This document shows positions 5,894 through 64,000 of a DNA stretch of 64,000 nt, piece by piece. The DNA is from an uncultured delta proteobacterium (GTDB lineage: Bacteria > Desulfobacterota > Syntrophia > Syntrophales > UBA2185): assembly GCA_963729715.1 (NCBI GenBank), contig CAVSPA010000004.1, positions 640,961-704,960 on the forward strand, written 5' to 3'. The position numbers and the translations under genes are program-made. Below the pieces are notes generated by a model. It was not told the DNA's origin, made no database searches, and was given only the letters and a program-made list of their open reading frames with translations. Within the stretch, counting starts at the first letter, position 1; the number at the start of each line of letters is the position of its first letter.

Positions 5894-6517
5894 AATCCTG
5901 CATTCTCCCAGGCCAGACTTAATCTGGCGGCTGTTGTCAAGTTTAGTGCTGCATAGCTGTAAGCATCAATCTGCCACTTTTTGTTTCCGTAGTAGAGTTC
6001 TCCTGTACTCGTTAATTCGCATTGTTTGCAAAAAGAACACACTTTCTCCTGAAAATTAATTATCCAAATAGTACCTCCTCTTTACATGTGGAGCAGCCAG
6101 TTGAGGTTTTAAAAATTTCTCCTGCGTGCTCTATGGCAACATTGGTTTGTTCTTATAACTGGCTTAGGTCAGTTTCAAATCCGGGGTCTTAAACCACCAG
6201 TAAGGTTCGACCTTTGTTCCACGGTATTCAAACTATGCCATCTAATAAACGAACAGAGACCTCGGATGCAACCATAATTTTCATTCTTTTTTGTGCCGAC
6301 TGGTCGGCATGGGGGTTTCAATGAGTATTCCGACGCAAGCCGCCACCCGAATATGATTGAAAGCGCCACCCTAATATGATTCATTCCGCCACCCGAATAT
6401 GACGGAAAGCGCCACCCGATTCCGATCCAATCCGCCACCCCTGATGAAGGGATAAACGACGCTGGATAAATCCGATGAAAGCCGTTAGGACTCCTGACAA
6501 AAACCCAGGAGGACACC

Positions 6518-8080
6518 GTGGCGGCAGAAAGGTTATCCATGCGCACCATAAAAGAAGTTCTACGATTGAAGTGGGAGAAAAAGTTCTCCAACCAGCAGAT
6601 TTCACAAAGCTGCAATATCGCCCGGAGCACAATCAGGGGATACTTGGCACGCGCTCAAAACGCCGGTCTGAGTTGGCCTCTGAGCCCCGATCTCGATGAC
6701 GGCTCCCTTGAAGCGCTGATGTTTCCGCCAGCACCAACAAAAGCCCCTGACAAGGGAGGACTACCCGCAATGGAGTACCTCCGTAAGGAGCTGAACCGCA
6801 AGGGGGTAACCCTATATCTTCTGTGGCTGGAATATAGAGCAGCCAACCCGGATGGGTATCAATACAGTCAGTTCTGTCTCCTTTATCGCCAGTGGACGGG
6901 CAAGCTGGATGTTTGCCTGCGCCAGACCCATCGGGCCGGGGAAAAGGTCTTTGTTGACTATGCCGGTCAGACGATCCCTGTTACGGATCCGGTTTCCGGG
7001 CAAATAAAAGAGGCGCATCTTTTTATCGCCGCCTTGGGCGCCAGCAGCTACACGTTTGCGTGGGCCTCTTTCTCGCAGGATCTTCCTTCCTGGGTCGATG
7101 CCCATATCCGGGCATTTAACTTCTTCGAGGGCGTCCCGGAGATCCTTGTTCCCGACAATCTCAAATCCGGCGTGAACAAACCCTGCACCTACGAACCGGA
7201 CATCAATCCGACCTATCATGATCTGGCGGAACATTATGGAGCGGTAGTCATTCCCACCCGCATCGCCAAACCGAAGGACAAGGCCAAAGCAGAATCGGCG
7301 GTTTTTGTGGCGGAACGGTGGATCTTGGCGGCGCTTCGGAACCACACTTTCTTCGGCATCGTGGAACTGAACCGGGCTATTGCCGAAAAGCTTCAGGACA
7401 TGAACAGCCGCAAGTTCCAAAAGATGGACGGCACCCGGAGGAGTCTTTACGAAACCATTGACCGGCCAGCTTTGAAACCGCTGCCTTCTTCTCCTTATGA
7501 ATATGCCGAATGGAAGAAGGCGAGAGTCAACATCGATTACCACATCGAGATCGACGGTCACTATTACAGTGTTCCCTATCAACTTGTAAAAGAACAGGTG
7601 GAGGTCCGCTTCACGGCGACCACCATCGAGGCGTTGTTCAAAAACCGTCGCGTCGCAACCCATCCGAGAAGTTACCACAGAGGTGCGCACACAACGCTGG
7701 CAGAACATATGCCCAAGGCACACCAAAAATATTTAGAATGGACTCCTTCCCGGATCATGGACTGGGCAGGTAAAAACGGTCCCAACACCCGTAATCTGGC
7801 TTCCTGCATCATGGAGAACCGTAAACATCCGGAGCAGGGTTTCCGCTCCTGTCTGGGCATCATGAGGCTGGTAAAGCGATACTCATCCGAGCGGGTGGAG
7901 GCAGCCTGTGGACGTTCCCTGCTGCTGAGGGCCTACAGTTACAAGAGCGTCGAATCGATCCTGAAAACCAACCTTGACAAACAGGAGTTGCCGGAATCCC
8001 TCTCTTCCGAAAAACCGATCCTCCATTACAACATCCGGGGAAGGGAATATTACCAGCAAGAGGAGGCTGTCGATGCTTGA
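6518..8080 (+). CDS. istA: IS21 transposase
   Basis: VDYAG, VPDNLKSGV and KPKDKAKAE motifs. Confidence 0.95.
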   Translation: MAAERLSMRTIKEVLRLKWEKKFSNQQISQSCNIARSTIRGYLARAQNAGLSWPLSPDLDDGSLEALMFPPAPTKAPDKGGLPAMEYLRKELNRKGVTLYLLWLEYRAANPDGYQYSQFCLLYRQWTGKLDVCLRQTHRAGEKVFVDYAGQTIPVTDPVSGQIKEAHLFIAALGASSYTFAWASFSQDLPSWVDAHIRAFNFFEGVPEILVPDNLKSGVNKPCTYEPDINPTYHDLAEHYGAVVIPTRIAKPKDKAKAESAVFVAERWILAALRNHTFFGIVELNRAIAEKLQDMNSRKFQKMDGTRRSLYETIDRPALKPLPSSPYEYAEWKKARVNIDYHIEIDGHYYSVPYQLVKEQVEVRFTATTIEALFKNRRVATHPRSYHRGAHTTLAEHMPKAHQKYLEWTPSRIMDWAGKNGPNTRNLASCIMENRKHPEQGFRSCLGIMRLVKRYSSERVEAACGRSLLLRAYSYKSVESILKTNLDKQELPESLSSEKPILHYNIRGREYYQQEEAVDA

Positions 8081-8816
8081 TCAACAGACCATAAACAAAC
8101 TTTATGAACTGAAACTGACGGGCATGGCGGAGGCCTTCGCCGATCAGCAAAACCAGCCGGATATGGATAAGCTCTCCTTCGCAGAACGTTTCGGTCTTAT
8201 TGTAGATCGTCAATGGACCTGGAAAGAAAACAACCGATTGGAACGATATCTGAAAAATGCCCGGATGAAACTCAATGCCTGCATTGAGGATATCGACTAT
8301 AAAACCCCGCGGGGACTCGATCGCTCAGTTATGATGAGCCTCAGCTCCTGCGATTGGGTCAAACGACACCACAACATTATTATCACCGGCCCCACCGGTG
8401 CGGGAAAAACCTTCCTCGCCTGCGCTCTGACCAACAAGGCTTGTCGGGAAGGATACCGTGCTCTCTACGTCCGATCCCCCGCGTTCTCATACCAGATGGT
8501 CCTGGCCAGGGGAGACGGAAGCTACGGCAAGACCATCAACAAACTCGCCAAGGCCCATGTCCTGGTGATTGACGATCTCGGCCTTGCTCCCATGACCGAT
8601 GCCGAACGAAGAGACCTCCTGGAGGTCGTTGAGGAAAGACATGGCCACGCCTCTACTATCGTCGCCAGTCAACTCCCCGTGGAGCACTGGCATGAACAGA
8701 TCGGCGATCCCACCATCGCCGATGCTATCCTTGACCGGTTGATCCATAACGCCCATAAAATAAACCTGTCCATGAAAGGAGGCTCCCTGAGAAAAAAATA
8801 TGCCGGCTTGACCTGA
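8073..8816 (+). CDS. istB: IS21 helper ATPase
   Basis: GPTGAGKT, IDDLG and ADAILDRL motifs; overlaps the istA stop. Confidence 0.95.
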   Translation: MLDQQTINKLYELKLTGMAEAFADQQNQPDMDKLSFAERFGLIVDRQWTWKENNRLERYLKNARMKLNACIEDIDYKTPRGLDRSVMMSLSSCDWVKRHHNIIITGPTGAGKTFLACALTNKACREGYRALYVRSPAFSYQMVLARGDGSYGKTINKLAKAHVLVIDDLGLAPMTDAERRDLLEVVEERHGHASTIVASQLPVEHWHEQIGDPTIADAILDRLIHNAHKINLSMKGGSLRKKYAGLT

Positions 8817-9051
8817 AAAAGCTTCTATGAGAAAGAGCTAAAAACCAGCGTCGCTATGCTCCGACAAGGGGTGGCGGAATCAACCGGAACACCCTGGCGC
8901 TTTGAATCGGAACAGGGTGGCCGCTTCCTTCGGAATCGAGTGGCGGAATCATCGGAATAGGCATTTCAAATGGAAATCACCAGAGTTATGTTGAGGTTCT
9001 TTTAAGGTATCCGCTTGACAAGATAACCTGAATTTGTTTGACTGCAAGAAA

Positions 9052-9104
9052 GGTGATGGAGTTCACCCGCAAACAAACCGCCGACAAGGCTGATAACTCC
9101 TACC
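9052..9104 (+). ncRNA. fluoride riboswitch (crcB motif)
   Basis: GGTGATGGAGTTCACC...AAACCGCC...GGCTGATAACTCCTAC fits the consensus, including the GGAGT/ACTCC pseudoknot pairing. Confidence 0.92.
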
Positions 9105-9129
9105 AGCGTTATTCTGGAGGAGTTTTTTT
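9095..9129 (+). terminator. riboswitch expression platform (terminator overlapping the aptamer 3' strand and the RBS)
   Basis: AACTCCT(A)CCAG pairs with CTGGAGGAGTT, followed by a T tract ending just before the ATG at 9130. Confidence 0.75.
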
Positions 9130-10791
9130 ATGTCAGATACTGCCCGCACTCAGGATGTTTCACAGCGGTCACTGAAAGACGTTCTTGAGCTTTGCGACAG
9201 ATTTTCCATTCTTTCCCTGAACCGCCAGATAGAAGCCTGCGAGAAGTTACTTGTCCAGAACCCGTCCATTGATGTGGCGATCCTTGGTCAGTTTAAGGCA
9301 GGTAAAAGTTCTTTCATCAATAGTCTTATAGGCAAATCAATCCTTCCCGTTGGTGTCATACCGGTTACTACGGTGATTACCCGCCTTCAATATGGAGAAA
9401 AAGAACAAGTCTTTATAAGATATTTTGACGGCAGGACATCCGAGATTAGCATTAACGATATTGGAACTTTTACCTCTGAAGCCGAAAATCCATCAAATAA
9501 TAAAAACGTAGAGGTTGTAGATATTGAGCTTCCGTCTCTTAGGGCTTATGCCGGTCTCCGCTTGGTGGATACCCCCGGCTTGGGAAGTGTCTTCAAATAT
9601 CACGTCGAAACCTCTGAAAATTGGCTTCCCCATGTTGGCACTGCCATACTTGCCATAAGCTCCGATCGACCCCTTTCGGACAATGACGTGCAATTGATTC
9701 GGGAGCTGATGCAGCATACACCGAATATAGTCATACTCCTCACAAAAGCTGACCTTCTATCGCCGGAACAGCAGAACGAAGTCATAGAATTTTTTGAGCA
9801 AACGATTCAGCGAGAATTAAACCGGCGATTACCGATCTATGTATACTCGACCCGTGTGAAGACAGAGCAATGCAAGGATCGCCTAGAAGTAGGACTTCTC
9901 TACATGTTGTCCTTAAACCGTGATTTCGAGTTCAGGAAAATCCTCCAGTACAAGATGCAGTCCCTGATAAAAGACTGTCTCTGCTATCTCGATATTGCCC
10001 TGAAAACATCTTTGCAGGCTGAGTATGATCGAGATTTACTGCGTAAACAGATTTTCGATGAAAAGGTTAATTTTGATCTGATACGTGAGGAACTAACTAT
10101 TATTGCCCGCGAGAACCAGAGACAGACTCGAACCCTTATTATGAATTACCTTGATAATTTTCAGAGGCCTCTTAGGAAAACACTTTCTGAAGATTTGGAA
10201 AAAGAGCTTCCCACGTGGAAAGTTAATCTCTGGAAACTCACCCGGAGATATGAAGAGTGGCTTGCAGACCGCATGACAGAGGAGATGAAGTATATTTCCA
10301 AAACAGAGCATAGACATTTCTATGGCACTCTCAACAAGGCACACGCAAGTTTATCCAGATCAATCGAAGCCTTCCGAAATCTTCTGGGTAAAAATATCAA
10401 AAAAGTCCTTGGCGTGAGGCTCGCTGATGCGGACTGGAAAATCGAGGTATCGGAACCCGATCACCCCGACATCAAGACGATAAGATCATTTGACTTCCAT
10501 TTCGATCTTATCTGGTTTCTTATCCCCATGTTCATTTTCAGGGGTCTTTTTGAGAAGCATTTTATTAGCGAGATTCCCCGCGAAGTGGAGGCTAACCTCT
10601 CGCGCCATGCCGCCCAGTGGGAGGAACGCATCAACACGGCAATCGAAGAAATTCGAAAACAGGCGATTAATTACGTAAAAGAAGAACTCTCCACCATAGA
10701 CGCCTTGTTATGGAAGACGCATGGTCAAACGGATGAGATCAATGAGGCCATTAAGAAACTCCAAGAAGGATTGCAGGACTTAATTGCTTAA
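9130..10791 (+). CDS. bacterial dynamin-like GTPase
   Basis: G1 GQFKAGKSS, G2 PVTT, G3 DTPG, G4 TKAD; long helical stalk with a hydrophobic tip (FDLIWFLIPMFIF). Confidence 0.9.
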   Translation: MSDTARTQDVSQRSLKDVLELCDRFSILSLNRQIEACEKLLVQNPSIDVAILGQFKAGKSSFINSLIGKSILPVGVIPVTTVITRLQYGEKEQVFIRYFDGRTSEISINDIGTFTSEAENPSNNKNVEVVDIELPSLRAYAGLRLVDTPGLGSVFKYHVETSENWLPHVGTAILAISSDRPLSDNDVQLIRELMQHTPNIVILLTKADLLSPEQQNEVIEFFEQTIQRELNRRLPIYVYSTRVKTEQCKDRLEVGLLYMLSLNRDFEFRKILQYKMQSLIKDCLCYLDIALKTSLQAEYDRDLLRKQIFDEKVNFDLIREELTIIARENQRQTRTLIMNYLDNFQRPLRKTLSEDLEKELPTWKVNLWKLTRRYEEWLADRMTEEMKYISKTEHRHFYGTLNKAHASLSRSIEAFRNLLGKNIKKVLGVRLADADWKIEVSEPDHPDIKTIRSFDFHFDLIWFLIPMFIFRGLFEKHFISEIPREVEANLSRHAAQWEERINTAIEEIRKQAINYVKEELSTIDALLWKTHGQTDEINEAIKKLQEGLQDLIA

Positions 10792-10874
10792 CTTGACGCA
10801 ATAGATTGTTAGATATTCAGGTGGAGCTATGTCTTGCCGTAATTTTTGTGAATTCAATGAAAAGGGGAATATAA

Positions 10875-11312
10875 ATGGAGCAGAAGAAAGGTTGTGTATT
10901 TTGTGACATCGTGGCGGGTAAGGCAGAAGCATATAGGATTTATGAAGATGAGCTTTCCATCTGCATACTGGATATCCACCCTTACACAAAGGGTCACTGC
11001 CTGGTAGTTCCAAAGCGGCATGTCCAGTGGTGGCATGAGCTCGCTGATGAAGAAAATGCAAGTCTTTTTAAGATGGCTAAGGTTGTTGCCAACCGGATGA
11101 TGAACAAATTTAATTCCGACTTCATTTTTCTCTGGGCAAGGGGCACAAGAATTCCGCATGCACATCTTTTCGTGGTGCCAAGTTACAACGGTGATGTACT
11201 CGACCAATTTTTCAACGCCCTTGAAAATTTCCAGGAATCAGCAGAGGAACTGACAAGGCTAAGAAAAGCTGAAGCGATGAAAGAAGCAGCGAGGCTTCTC
11301 AGCACTAAATAA
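10875..11312 (+). CDS. HIT family protein
   Basis: CVFC, P..KGH.LVVPKRH and IPHAHLFVVP motifs. Confidence 0.9.
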   Translation: MEQKKGCVFCDIVAGKAEAYRIYEDELSICILDIHPYTKGHCLVVPKRHVQWWHELADEENASLFKMAKVVANRMMNKFNSDFIFLWARGTRIPHAHLFVVPSYNGDVLDQFFNALENFQESAEELTRLRKAEAMKEAARLLSTK

Positions 11313-13123: not shown

Positions 13124-15645
<2,522 letters not shown>

Positions 15646-15728
15646 GTATTTATATTATTCTTATTTAACATATGCTATTAAGTTTTTATGCATCTACTAA
15701 ACGATTTTGATTATACAAGGTGGAGACA

Positions 15729-16546
15729 TCATTTGCTTCTTCCTTGTAGTCTATCAACCAGCTCCAATTGAATGAGGATATGCCTTATATCCATGGACAA
15801 ACCTGCGGCCCCTTCCCTGATACCAATGGTATTCTTTGCGAGTCTGATAAGCATCTCCGCATGGCTTTCCCTGAATTTACCCCTGCTCCTCTTCCTTATC
15901 TCTTTGCCAAGCTCTTCCTTTTTTAAACCGCCTATGATTTCAGGTGTGAGATATTTATTGAGTATATAGAGAGCTGTCTTGACCTGTATATCCTTTATCA
16001 CCCTTCTGAATTCGGGAAACAAGAGAAAGACCAGTTGCTGCAACTGATTGAGAAGGGCCGTACGTTCCCCGACATGCCTCTCCCTCGAGTTGTTCAATCT
16101 CTTCAAGTAGGCCGCATCACCTTCCGGGATCACAATGCTCAGTGAGTGCCCCAATAGTATAATATCCGCCAGTACCCGGGGATCCTTGTCATCTGTCTTC
16201 AGCGGAGAGTTGTCGTTTATCTCTTTTACCCTCTTTGTGTGCATGGGATTAACCTGGACTACCGTCACGGGCTTCTTTGACAGGTAATGGCCGATGGGTT
16301 CACCATAGGGACCTGTTGATTCGTATCCTACGATCACCTCATTGCATCTGAACCTGTTCTTATTCACAACAATCATGCTCCAGAGCCTGTCAAGCCCCGC
16401 CCTCGTATTGTCAAATCTGAAAGGCTTTATATCCCTTCCGTCTGTGGTGGTACAGTACCCTCTGTTCATCTCCAAACCGATTCTATTGTCACGATCAGCG
16501 TATCTTCCTTTACCCTTCCTATTTTCCCTGTGCATGCTTTCTTCAT
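15729..16546 (-). pseudogene. IS110 transposase fragment (frameshift near the start, 3' truncated)
   Basis: ESTGPY, VNP and KTDDKD motifs; MKKACTG start at 16546 is out of frame; no C-terminal domain. Confidence 0.85.
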
Positions 16547-63259: not shown

Positions 63260-64000
63260 GTCGAGTGGCGCGACGGAGTTTCACCATCGCGCTCTCCGAG
63301 AACTGGACGTGACAGTCTCCCGTCATCCAGCTCCTATTGTCCAGCCTTACCCTGAGAGAGTTGCCAATGAGCAAAGAGCCTTGGCTGCCTGCGCACCACG
63401 CCTTGCATCCAAAGAAAAGCCCGTCTCTTATGCCCCCTCAATCTTTTGTATTTCCGGGATGCCCACCGAGCAAGAATATTGTTCAGGTGTTGAAAGGTTC
63501 GGTAAAGAGCTGATTTGCGGAAGTGTCCGTAGTAGTTGATCCACCCTCTTAATACTGGGTTGATCATCTGAGCCAGTTCGTCTAGTGATTTGTCCGTGCG
63601 ACGGTGCAATTTCCATTGCCTCATGGCATCGCATATCGATTTTGTGGCTTTGTTGCTGATTGCAGGATTAAATCCGACGAAAAATATACCCCGGCGGTTT
63701 TTCGCTCTCCGGGGCCGAAATGTATAGCCCAAGAAATCAAACTTCTGCTCAGGATAATCTCTTCGCCGATCATCATCTTTACAGTAGACAATCCTCGTCT
63801 TCTGCAAGTTAAGCTCCAGCCCACATTCAGCAAAACGCTTTCCAATCGCTACACGAAGCCTCTCAGCTTCGGCCTTGCTCCGACAGTGACAAATCACATC
63901 ATCGGCATAACGCTCGAAAGGAATCCGAGGATACCGCCTCTTCATCCACACATCGAACGCGTAATGCAAAAAGAGATTAGCAAGTAATGGACTAACCACT
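63260..64000 (-). mobile_element. group II intron, 3' part (continues beyond the window)
   Basis: domain V GAGCTGGATGACGGGAGACTGTCACGTCCAGTTC and domain VI hairpin ending ...ACTCGAC at 63260, directly after the RT stop. Confidence 0.92.
63334..63999 (-). CDS. ltrA: group II intron reverse transcriptase/maturase, partial, no endonuclease domain
   Basis: SPLLAN, RYADD, FDFLG and RGWINYY motifs; ends LFAHW. Confidence 0.93.
   Translation of the reverse strand: MVSPLLANLFLHYAFDVWMKRRYPRIPFERYADDVICHCRSKAEAERLRVAIGKRFAECGLELNLQKTRIVYCKDDDRRRDYPEQKFDFLGYTFRPRRAKNRRGIFFVGFNPAISNKATKSICDAMRQWKLHRRTDKSLDELAQMINPVLRGWINYYGHFRKSALYRTFQHLNNILARWASRKYKRLRGHKRRAFLWMQGVVRRQPRLFAHWQLSQGKAGQ

Follow-up and report, generated by a model that had tools for sequence, protein, structure and literature searches.

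A fluoride riboswitch is coupled to the gene of a bacterial dynamin-like GTPase across the order Syntrophales

The 64,000-nucleotide stretch of DNA analyzed here (the window; contig CAVSPA010000004.1 of an uncultured bacterium of the order Syntrophales) carries a short unit composed of a fluoride riboswitch, a gene for a bacterial dynamin-like protein (BDLP), and a gene for a HIT-family protein (Table 1). The source genome, which was searched as a whole, comprises 3.76 Mb in 19 contigs and was estimated from marker genes to be 100% complete and 6.5% contaminated. The original prediction, a model's reading of the DNA letters, had proposed that the riboswitch controls a dynamin-like GTPase and not a fluoride exporter. 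This proposal is supported by the aptamer, by an expression platform of the ON-switch type, and by all 61 assessable loci of related genomes. The riboswitch and the BDLP each belong to a known kind, and their conserved coupling is a new form of fluoride regulon.

Table 1. Features of the riboswitch-dynamin unit and its surroundings; positions are those of the window.
Feature	Position	Strand	Basis
IS21 element, complete-looking	6320-8965		
IS21 istA	6518-8080		
IS21 istB	7974-8816		
TTGACA, -35-like hexamer of likely promoter	9016-9021	+	conserved leader block
Fluoride riboswitch aptamer (crcB motif, RF01734)	9043-9109	+	Rfam cmscan
Expression platform: terminator and Shine-Dalgarno-sequestering hairpin with T run	9095-9129	+	minimum free energy and centroid folds
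Shine-Dalgarno sequence GGAGGAG	9116-9122	+	sequence and fold
Bacterial dynamin-like protein, 553 aa	9130-10791	+	Pfam, PDB, AlphaFold2, Foldseek
P-loop (G1) GQFKAGKS, residues 53-60	9286-9309	+	75-sequence alignment
Candidate membrane paddle, most hydrophobic segment LIWFLIPMFIFRGLF, residues 460-474	10507-10551	+	
HIT-family protein, 145 aa	10875-11312	+	Pfam HIT
IS256-family transposase	13541-14791	-	
IS110-family fragment	14890-15489	-	
IS110-family fragment	15729-16535	-	

The aptamer matched the Rfam model over its full length (model positions 1-64) with a score of 55.0 bits and an E value of 1.6e-12, well above the gathering score of 34, which bears out the consensus fluoride aptamer that had been predicted. 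It was the single match to RF01734 in the genome, and its score was 69.5 bits under a covariance model built from 30 Syntrophales aptamers. The start given in the original prediction, 9052, is the first base of helix P1, and the covariance-model match starts 9 nucleotides (nt) upstream of it. The fold of positions 9040-9140, with a minimum free energy of -28.1 kcal/mol and a z score of -2.47, contains both aptamer helices, and in the pseudoknot GGAGU (9058-9062) pairs with the ACUCC inside an AACUCCU strand. When the 30 Rfam-verified aptamers from Syntrophales genomes, including that of the window, were aligned, standard pairs occupied 93.1% of the cells and 100% of those in helix 1 and the pseudoknot, four base pairs were found changed on both sides, and the structure scored above all slid controls. 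The element is a genuine fluoride-riboswitch aptamer.

In both the minimum free energy and the centroid folds, the aptamer is followed by a hairpin with a 5′ arm at 9095-9106, a loop at 9107-9113, and a 3′ arm at 9114-9124. The 5′ arm opens with AACUCCU, which in the aptamer makes up the 3′ strand of the pseudoknot, and the 3′ arm sequesters the Shine-Dalgarno sequence, located 7 nt upstream of the ATG. A T run follows at 9123-9129, its first two bases being paired in the stem, and the ATG comes next at 9130. The competition that had been proposed between the aptamer 3′ strand and a terminator or ribosome-binding-site hairpin ending at the ATG is thus visible in the fold as the shared AACUCCU. 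The same ACUCCU...AGGAGU-U(n)-AUG design was present in the 33 relatives whose leaders were compared, with variable inner stem bases. Classical RF01734 units (the crcB and eriC-F leaders) have the same aptamer class and an ON-switch with a terminator overlapping the aptamer 3′ strand, and terminators overlapping this strand are described in passages of Weinberg 2010 (PMC2864571). The difference from the classical units is in the gene, which here encodes a dynamin-like GTPase. The platform is a standard ON-switch arrangement that acts on both termination and ribosome access and is OFF by default. Without fluoride, the leader RNA would form the hairpin and its U run, by which transcription would be terminated and the ribosome-binding site buried. 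When fluoride is present, the aptamer would bind it as a Mg2+ complex and keep the ACUCC strand in the pseudoknot, so that the hairpin would be blocked and the dynamin and HIT genes would be transcribed and translated. Judging from this RNA architecture, fluoride very probably induces the dynamin gene in vivo. In six of the other leaders (L018, L019, L030, L039, L072, and L076), the stretch from aptamer to start codon contains two ACUCCU...AGGAGU hairpins in succession, which suggests a duplicated or two-step expression platform.

The gene behind the switch encodes a protein that matched the Pfam Dynamin_N family over residues 49-205 with 87.1 bits (cut-off 27, E 1.8e-24). This match and the fold matches described below confirm that it is a 553-aa dynamin-like GTPase, as had been proposed. 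NCBIfam models gave sub-threshold matches only, to DynA and to ribosome-biogenesis GTPases, and the nearest homologues carry the NCBI name "dynamin family protein [Syntrophales bacterium]". The nearest PDB sequences were the Campylobacter jejuni dynamin-like protein (5owv_C, 5.7e-16), IniA (6j72, 4.7e-15), and the Nostoc BDLP (2j68, 4.8e-12). An AlphaFold2 model built on a 75-sequence alignment of dynamin relatives (mean predicted local distance difference test score 92.8, predicted template-modeling score 0.85) consists of a GTPase domain followed by long helices at residues 245-552. The top Foldseek matches of this model were IniA (E 3.1e-20), BDLP (2.5e-19), Cj-DLP, SynDLP, and mitofusins; the probability was 1.00 for the first four, with alignments of 579-709 columns. 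The predicted helical neck and trunk are of the kind seen in the solved BDLPs.

Ten residues of the protein (G53, G58, K59, T80, D147-T148-P149-G150, K206, and D208) are invariant in the 75 sequences, which reach down to 27% identity, and S60 of the P-loop is nearly so. We assign the invariant residues to the G1-G4 motifs; by this measure, the GTPase domain is intact. The segment LIWFLIPMFIFRGLF has the highest 15-residue Kyte-Doolittle mean of the protein (2.04), is conserved as DLLWFLxPMxLFR, with F454 and P466 nearly invariant, and sits in the model between the long helices 394-427 and 467-527. This is what we take to be the topological place of the BDLP membrane paddle, which makes the segment a candidate for a paddle with a putative role at the membrane. 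The gene is the sole real dynamin-family gene of the genome. In other genomes, a decayed copy was observed (L058:4001-6743), which is split after residue 309 by about 1.1 kb of inserted DNA and has kept its upstream aptamer. At L071:2235-2681 and L074:4001-4425, only about 150 C-terminal residues are left, and no aptamer lies nearby.

To describe the distribution of the pairing, 74 genome loci with dynamin relatives of 36-89% identity were searched with the model from the 30 verified aptamers. The aptamer counts rest on this covariance model and not on a regular expression, a pass with which missed several aptamers, such as those of L012, L018, L032, L036, L053, and L062. A same-strand aptamer was found 12-203 nt before the estimated dynamin start in 61 of the 74 loci. 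The other 13 were not assessable: ten lie at a contig end, L050 has a gap of N over the 5′ half of the gene, and L071 and L074 hold the C-terminal remnants. Wherever the 5′ end of the gene was intact and DNA upstream of it was present, the genome locus had an aptamer. The count of riboswitch-dynamin pairs across genomes, which had been suggested as a check on the original prediction, therefore came to 61 out of 61. The aptamers of L053 and L063 reach the Rfam gathering score. The linkage was also examined in a second, independent set, 80 metagenome loci comprising 51 close relatives (at least 55% identity) and 29 distant ones (36-46% identity). The aptamer was directly upstream in 48 of the 51 close loci. 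As for the other three, L130 has its aptamer 881 nt upstream, with a prenyltransferase-like gene between; in L114 the 902 nt that could be searched contain no aptamer, and the bases just before the dynamin start are occupied by an upstream gene; and L123 has no upstream DNA. Among the distant loci, eight have a direct aptamer, seven of them reaching the Rfam cut-off and one (L187, 25.7 bits) being supported by the 30-aptamer model alone. In five others, the Rfam-confirmed aptamer lies 0.8-1.7 kb upstream and is separated from the dynamin gene by same-strand open reading frames (ORFs), and two have no upstream DNA.

The presence of the riboswitch and the protein (E <= 1e-30) was also compared over 61 Syntrophales genomes, which are mutually related, so that the counts show a pattern and should not be read as a statistical test. 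The riboswitch was present in 34 genomes and the dynamin-like protein in 27. Both were found in 26 and neither in another 26. Thus, 26 of the 27 genomes with the protein also hold a fluoride riboswitch, and the protein without the riboswitch was seen once (G030), as a fragment matching residues 213-352. The dynamin gene is the commonest gene behind the Syntrophales fluoride riboswitches. At least one carrier is in culture, Syntrophus buswellii DM-2 (L048), the protein of which is 62% identical and is preceded by an aptamer at about 104 nt. The riboswitch-dynamin linkage is near-obligate and conserved throughout the order.

CrcB was not found in the whole-genome search, and the window holds neither CrcB nor a CLC, in agreement with the earlier statement that no crcB/fluc or CLC-F gene lies in it. 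The only CLC of the genome is on another contig (C5:217493-218485; L002:1291-2733, - strand) and has no riboswitch. Its nearest solved sequence is CLC-F (6d0j), with 142.7 bits versus 74.6 bits for ClcA. An Ile (GGIVTP) is aligned to the glutamate of the GGEVTP motif in the Enterococcus (Eca) CLC-F, a glutamate which is presumably important in CLC-F. By its nearest solved relative, a CLC-F fluoride/proton antiporter, this CLC is a candidate fluoride exporter, but the Ile makes its specificity for fluoride uncertain. CrcB is rare in the order: only 2 of the 61 Syntrophales genomes gave a match, neither of them among the 22 genomes of the family to which the source organism belongs, and the other 59 gave none, while 34 of the 61 keep fluoride riboswitches. 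We also considered that the exporter had merely been lost from this locus, in which case orthologous loci should always carry one. A tblastn search of 154 dynamin loci (955 kb) with the CLC of the genome and two Syntrophales CrcB proteins as queries returned no CLC and one weak CrcB-like match (L171), and the explanation was rejected. A second enolase under riboswitch control was likewise rejected, as the genome has a single enolase gene on contig C11 and its sole riboswitch is at the dynamin gene. The riboswitch-type Na+/H+ exchanger was not found in the genome either (L022 protein as query, E <= 1e-10).

The HIT gene that had been reported after the dynamin gene is confirmed by a Pfam HIT match of 58.9 bits (cut-off 21.5). 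The DNA between the two genes showed no terminator-like site, and the HIT gene is probably co-transcribed with the dynamin gene. In 17 loci, the window included, a HIT gene comes directly after the dynamin gene or a short distance beyond it. In the motif of the window protein, PHAHLFVVP, a Phe replaces the third histidine of the HxHxHxx triad, and throughout the dynamin-linked cluster, which has the pattern PH[TAN]H[LVI][FL], the third histidine is a Phe or Leu (17 of 17 members, e.g., L004:5763-6200). Proteins with this variant triad may form a separate HIT subfamily linked to fluoride. HIT enzymes are able to hydrolyse nucleoside phosphofluoridates.

To identify the other neighbors, the ORFs in the 74 genome loci were clustered, and representatives of the clusters were compared with Pfam. 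The most frequent is enolase (cluster c1, 21 loci). Next in frequency after enolase and HIT are a Na+/H+ exchanger of the CPA2 type, which usually has its own second aptamer (14 loci), a prenyltransferase-like protein (12 loci), a P-loop protein of about 230 aa (11 loci), GGGtGRT (PF14057; 10 loci), a 230-aa protein that is usually 5′ of GGGtGRT (9 loci), a MutS-domain-V protein (8 loci), a phosphoglycerate-mutase-type phosphatase (5 loci), MFS transporters (4 loci), and Usp (4 loci). Within the genus of the source organism, the unit consists of the dynamin gene and HIT in the window and in L004-L007 and L009, and L003 and L008 have no HIT gene. According to passages of a 2024 review (PMC11139923), the gene classes associated with fluoride riboswitches are exporters, Na+/H+ antiporters, pyrophosphatase, HAD phosphatases, enolase, and formate hydrogen lyase; several neighbors at the dynamin loci are thus among these classes. 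Enolase, the Na+/H+ exchanger, Usp, the MutS-like protein, and MFS count as classical members of the fluoride regulon, which speaks for a fluoride-inducible operon. PMC5533749, on the fluoride-resistance operon of Enterobacter cloacae FRM, treats a fluoride riboswitch, enolase, and a universal stress protein, kinds of genes that are also found with the dynamin gene in Syntrophales relatives. A gene pair directly 3′ of the dynamin gene was observed in one Syntrophales subgroup (L046:2369-4118, L049, L051, L052, L057, L065, L069, L071, and L075); it encodes the 230-aa protein, which has no Pfam match, and then GGGtGRT (E 5e-187), and is probably regulated by fluoride. Tandem fluoride aptamers within about 100 nt were observed at L017:7018-7124, L031:5818-5921, and L066:2974-3072. 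The genes after them are unannotated and encode a P-loop protein of about 230 aa (weak KAP/AAA matches) and proteins of clusters c8, c19, and c25, for which Pfam gave no match.

What the dynamin-like protein does under fluoride can be considered from its family, which is known for membrane activities. We suggest that the unit is a fluoride-inducible operon that provides a BDLP for membrane maintenance together with a HIT-family hydrolase, a reading with about an even chance of being right as a whole. Fluoride would enter the cell as HF, acidify the cytoplasm, and drain the proton gradient, and the BDLP would bind the cytoplasmic membrane and keep it sealed or remodelled. The role in membrane maintenance is itself tentative, and we place it slightly below an even chance; it is based on the activities of the family, on the conserved hydrophobic tip, and on points from the work of Calero et al. 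2022. In the sections of that paper seen (PMC9796867), fluoride is presented as a de-energising weak acid, the transposon sequencing of Pseudomonas putida under fluoride singled out membrane-integrity genes, and membrane stability is called vital.

Several points weigh against this reading. The literature consulted describes fluoride as a de-energising weak acid and not as a membrane breaker, and the induction by fluoride is a prediction from RNA architecture alone. The template-modeling scores of the Foldseek matches to full-length BDLPs are only 0.33-0.38, as is expected for multi-domain hinge proteins, so that the geometry of the stalk stays a prediction. The aptamer of L021 is weak, with 34 bits in the 30-aptamer model, and is under the Rfam gathering score. 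The riboswitch occurs without the dynamin-like protein in 8 of the 61 Syntrophales genomes, i.e., in 8 of the 34 riboswitch carriers. Finally, 14 of the 29 distant metagenome loci (36-46% identity) have no aptamer within the 2.5-kb flank. At several of these 14 loci, same-strand genes for the Na+/H+ exchanger, Usp, and MFS transporters, which are of the fluoride-regulon type, reach the edge of the locus, so a switch further upstream is possible.

Other explanations of the pairing were weighed against membrane maintenance. Fluoride might inhibit the GTPase, as it does enolase, and the cell might respond by making more of it. Enolase, the textbook case, does follow the dynamin gene in the 21 loci of cluster c1, and overexpression is named in part of the 2024 review (PMC11139923) as a means by which fluoride inhibition of enzymes is countered. 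However, the genome has one dynamin gene, and a terminator keeps it off by default, so there is no constitutive copy in need of a top-up. Moreover, almost all genomes with the gene (26 of 27) also bear a riboswitch, which would not be expected of a housekeeping enzyme. We therefore regard such a compensation of dose as unlikely. The original prediction had also offered a replacement GTPase, which is disfavored because the genome has no housekeeping dynamin copy to be replaced.

Metal fluorides together with GDP stabilise the G-domain dimers of dynamin-family proteins in vitro. Fluoride could thus act on the protein directly: with Mg2+ and GDP it would mimic the transition state and lock the G-domain dimers, and the dynamin would serve as a fluoride-triggered membrane tether or scaffold in place of a GTPase with a normal cycle. 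The full conservation of the GTPase site in the 75 sequences fits this mechanism, as does the prediction from the aptamer and platform that synthesis of the protein requires fluoride. Nevertheless, the same chemistry predicts plain inhibition equally well, and a direct effector seems rather improbable to us. An extension would be a tolerance module that is independent of exporters, in which a fluoride-locked membrane dynamin works with a variant HIT protein that clears nucleotide-fluoride adducts. We consider this module quite doubtful; if it were true, bacterial dynamins would gain a first defined chemical trigger as well as a defined physiological job.

That the dynamin gene is a passenger, merely first in an operon whose riboswitch serves a downstream enolase, antiporter, or HIT gene, might be concluded from the well-known fluoride genes behind it in the operons of relatives. 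This is very unlikely, since in most loci compared from the genus the dynamin gene is followed only by HIT, since it stands directly behind the aptamer in all of the assessable genome loci, and since the Na+/H+ exchanger usually has an aptamer of its own. The JGI label "GTP-binding protein EngB" on many homologues and a weak PADLOC match to LeoA (28 bits, residues 32-70) would suggest a ribosome-biogenesis GTPase or an anti-phage Leo-type dynamin, but such a misassignment is extremely improbable and both labels were rejected, because the NCBIfam models YsxC, Der, and Era scored 20-40 bits versus cut-offs of 116-630, the model has a helical stalk of about 300 residues with IniA and BDLP as the best fold matches, and the LeoA match is limited to the P-loop, with no LeoB/C partner nearby.

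With membrane maintenance as the preferred reading, the protein can be compared with the BDLPs that have been studied. IniA of Mycobacterium (PDB 6j72), which acts with IniC, is its best fold match and second-best PDB sequence match. At 606 aa, IniA is similar in size, and it too is a BDLP switched on by chemical stress; we take it to be the isoniazid-inducible dynamin-like protein. It differs from the window protein in that the two share only 15-16% identity and in that it belongs to a cell-wall drug response, whereas here fluoride is sensed by an RNA. In addition, IniA is paired with IniC, and the genome of the window has no paired second dynamin gene. The Nostoc punctiforme BDLP (2j68/2j69) and C. 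jejuni DLP1/DLP2 (5owv) have a GTPase domain and a helical neck and trunk, as is the case here, but the window protein is shorter (553 aa versus 695 aa for the Nostoc BDLP and 614/732 aa for the C. jejuni pair) and is encoded by a single gene, not by a pair. To our knowledge, no ligand-specific regulation is known for these BDLPs.

A link between a fluoride riboswitch and a dynamin was not found in a full-text literature search, the coverage of which did not extend to Baker et al. 2012 and its supplementary gene table. Neither "dynamin" nor "GTPase" appears as a word in PMC11139923, in Sherlock & Breaker 2020, or in Weinberg 2010 (PMC2864571). The functions of bacterial dynamins are largely open and few inducing signals are known for them, whereas here a whole BDLP family is tied to one specific, cheap inducer. 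Since the ligand of the RNA sensor is known, the function of the dynamin can be tested directly with NaF, and the pairing suggests that bacterial dynamins have a function under fluoride stress. The picture of fluoride defense is also widened, given that riboswitches are kept without CrcB in Syntrophales. Fluoride tolerance matters in the degradation of organofluorine compounds, where, according to the part of the 2024 review (PMC11139923) that treats it, the fluoride released poisons the degrader.

A promoter with the -35-like hexamer TTGACA likely heads the unit. The hexamer lies within the block CTTGACAA (9015-9022), which is invariant in nine aligned leaders of the genus, and the -10 element is weak (TTGACT, 9039-9044). 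A consensus promoter scan did not list a promoter at 9016-9044. Homology with the relatives of the genus begins at CTTGACAA, and all DNA upstream of it differs. Directly upstream of the unit there is a complete-looking IS21 insertion sequence, which has multiply repeated, inverted ends at about 6325-6440 and 8869-8949 and stops roughly 50-65 nt short of the -35-like box. Because homology resumes at 9015-9022, the insertion left the conserved box intact. On the other side, 3′ of the HIT gene, the genes of a DsbD/ArsG-like membrane protein and a TPR protein follow, neither of which is in the loci of relatives, and then transposase genes pile up (13541-16535). The flanking genes of the genus relatives (clusters c10, c12-c15, and c18) have no orthologue in the window, which contains only paralogues of 27-36% identity at 27.5-29.4 kb. 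The riboswitch-dynamin-HIT block has thus stayed intact inside a heavily rearranged region. Near the far end of the window, a match to the group II catalytic intron (RF00029) was observed on the - strand at 63260-63335, with 51.1 bits against a cut-off of 40.

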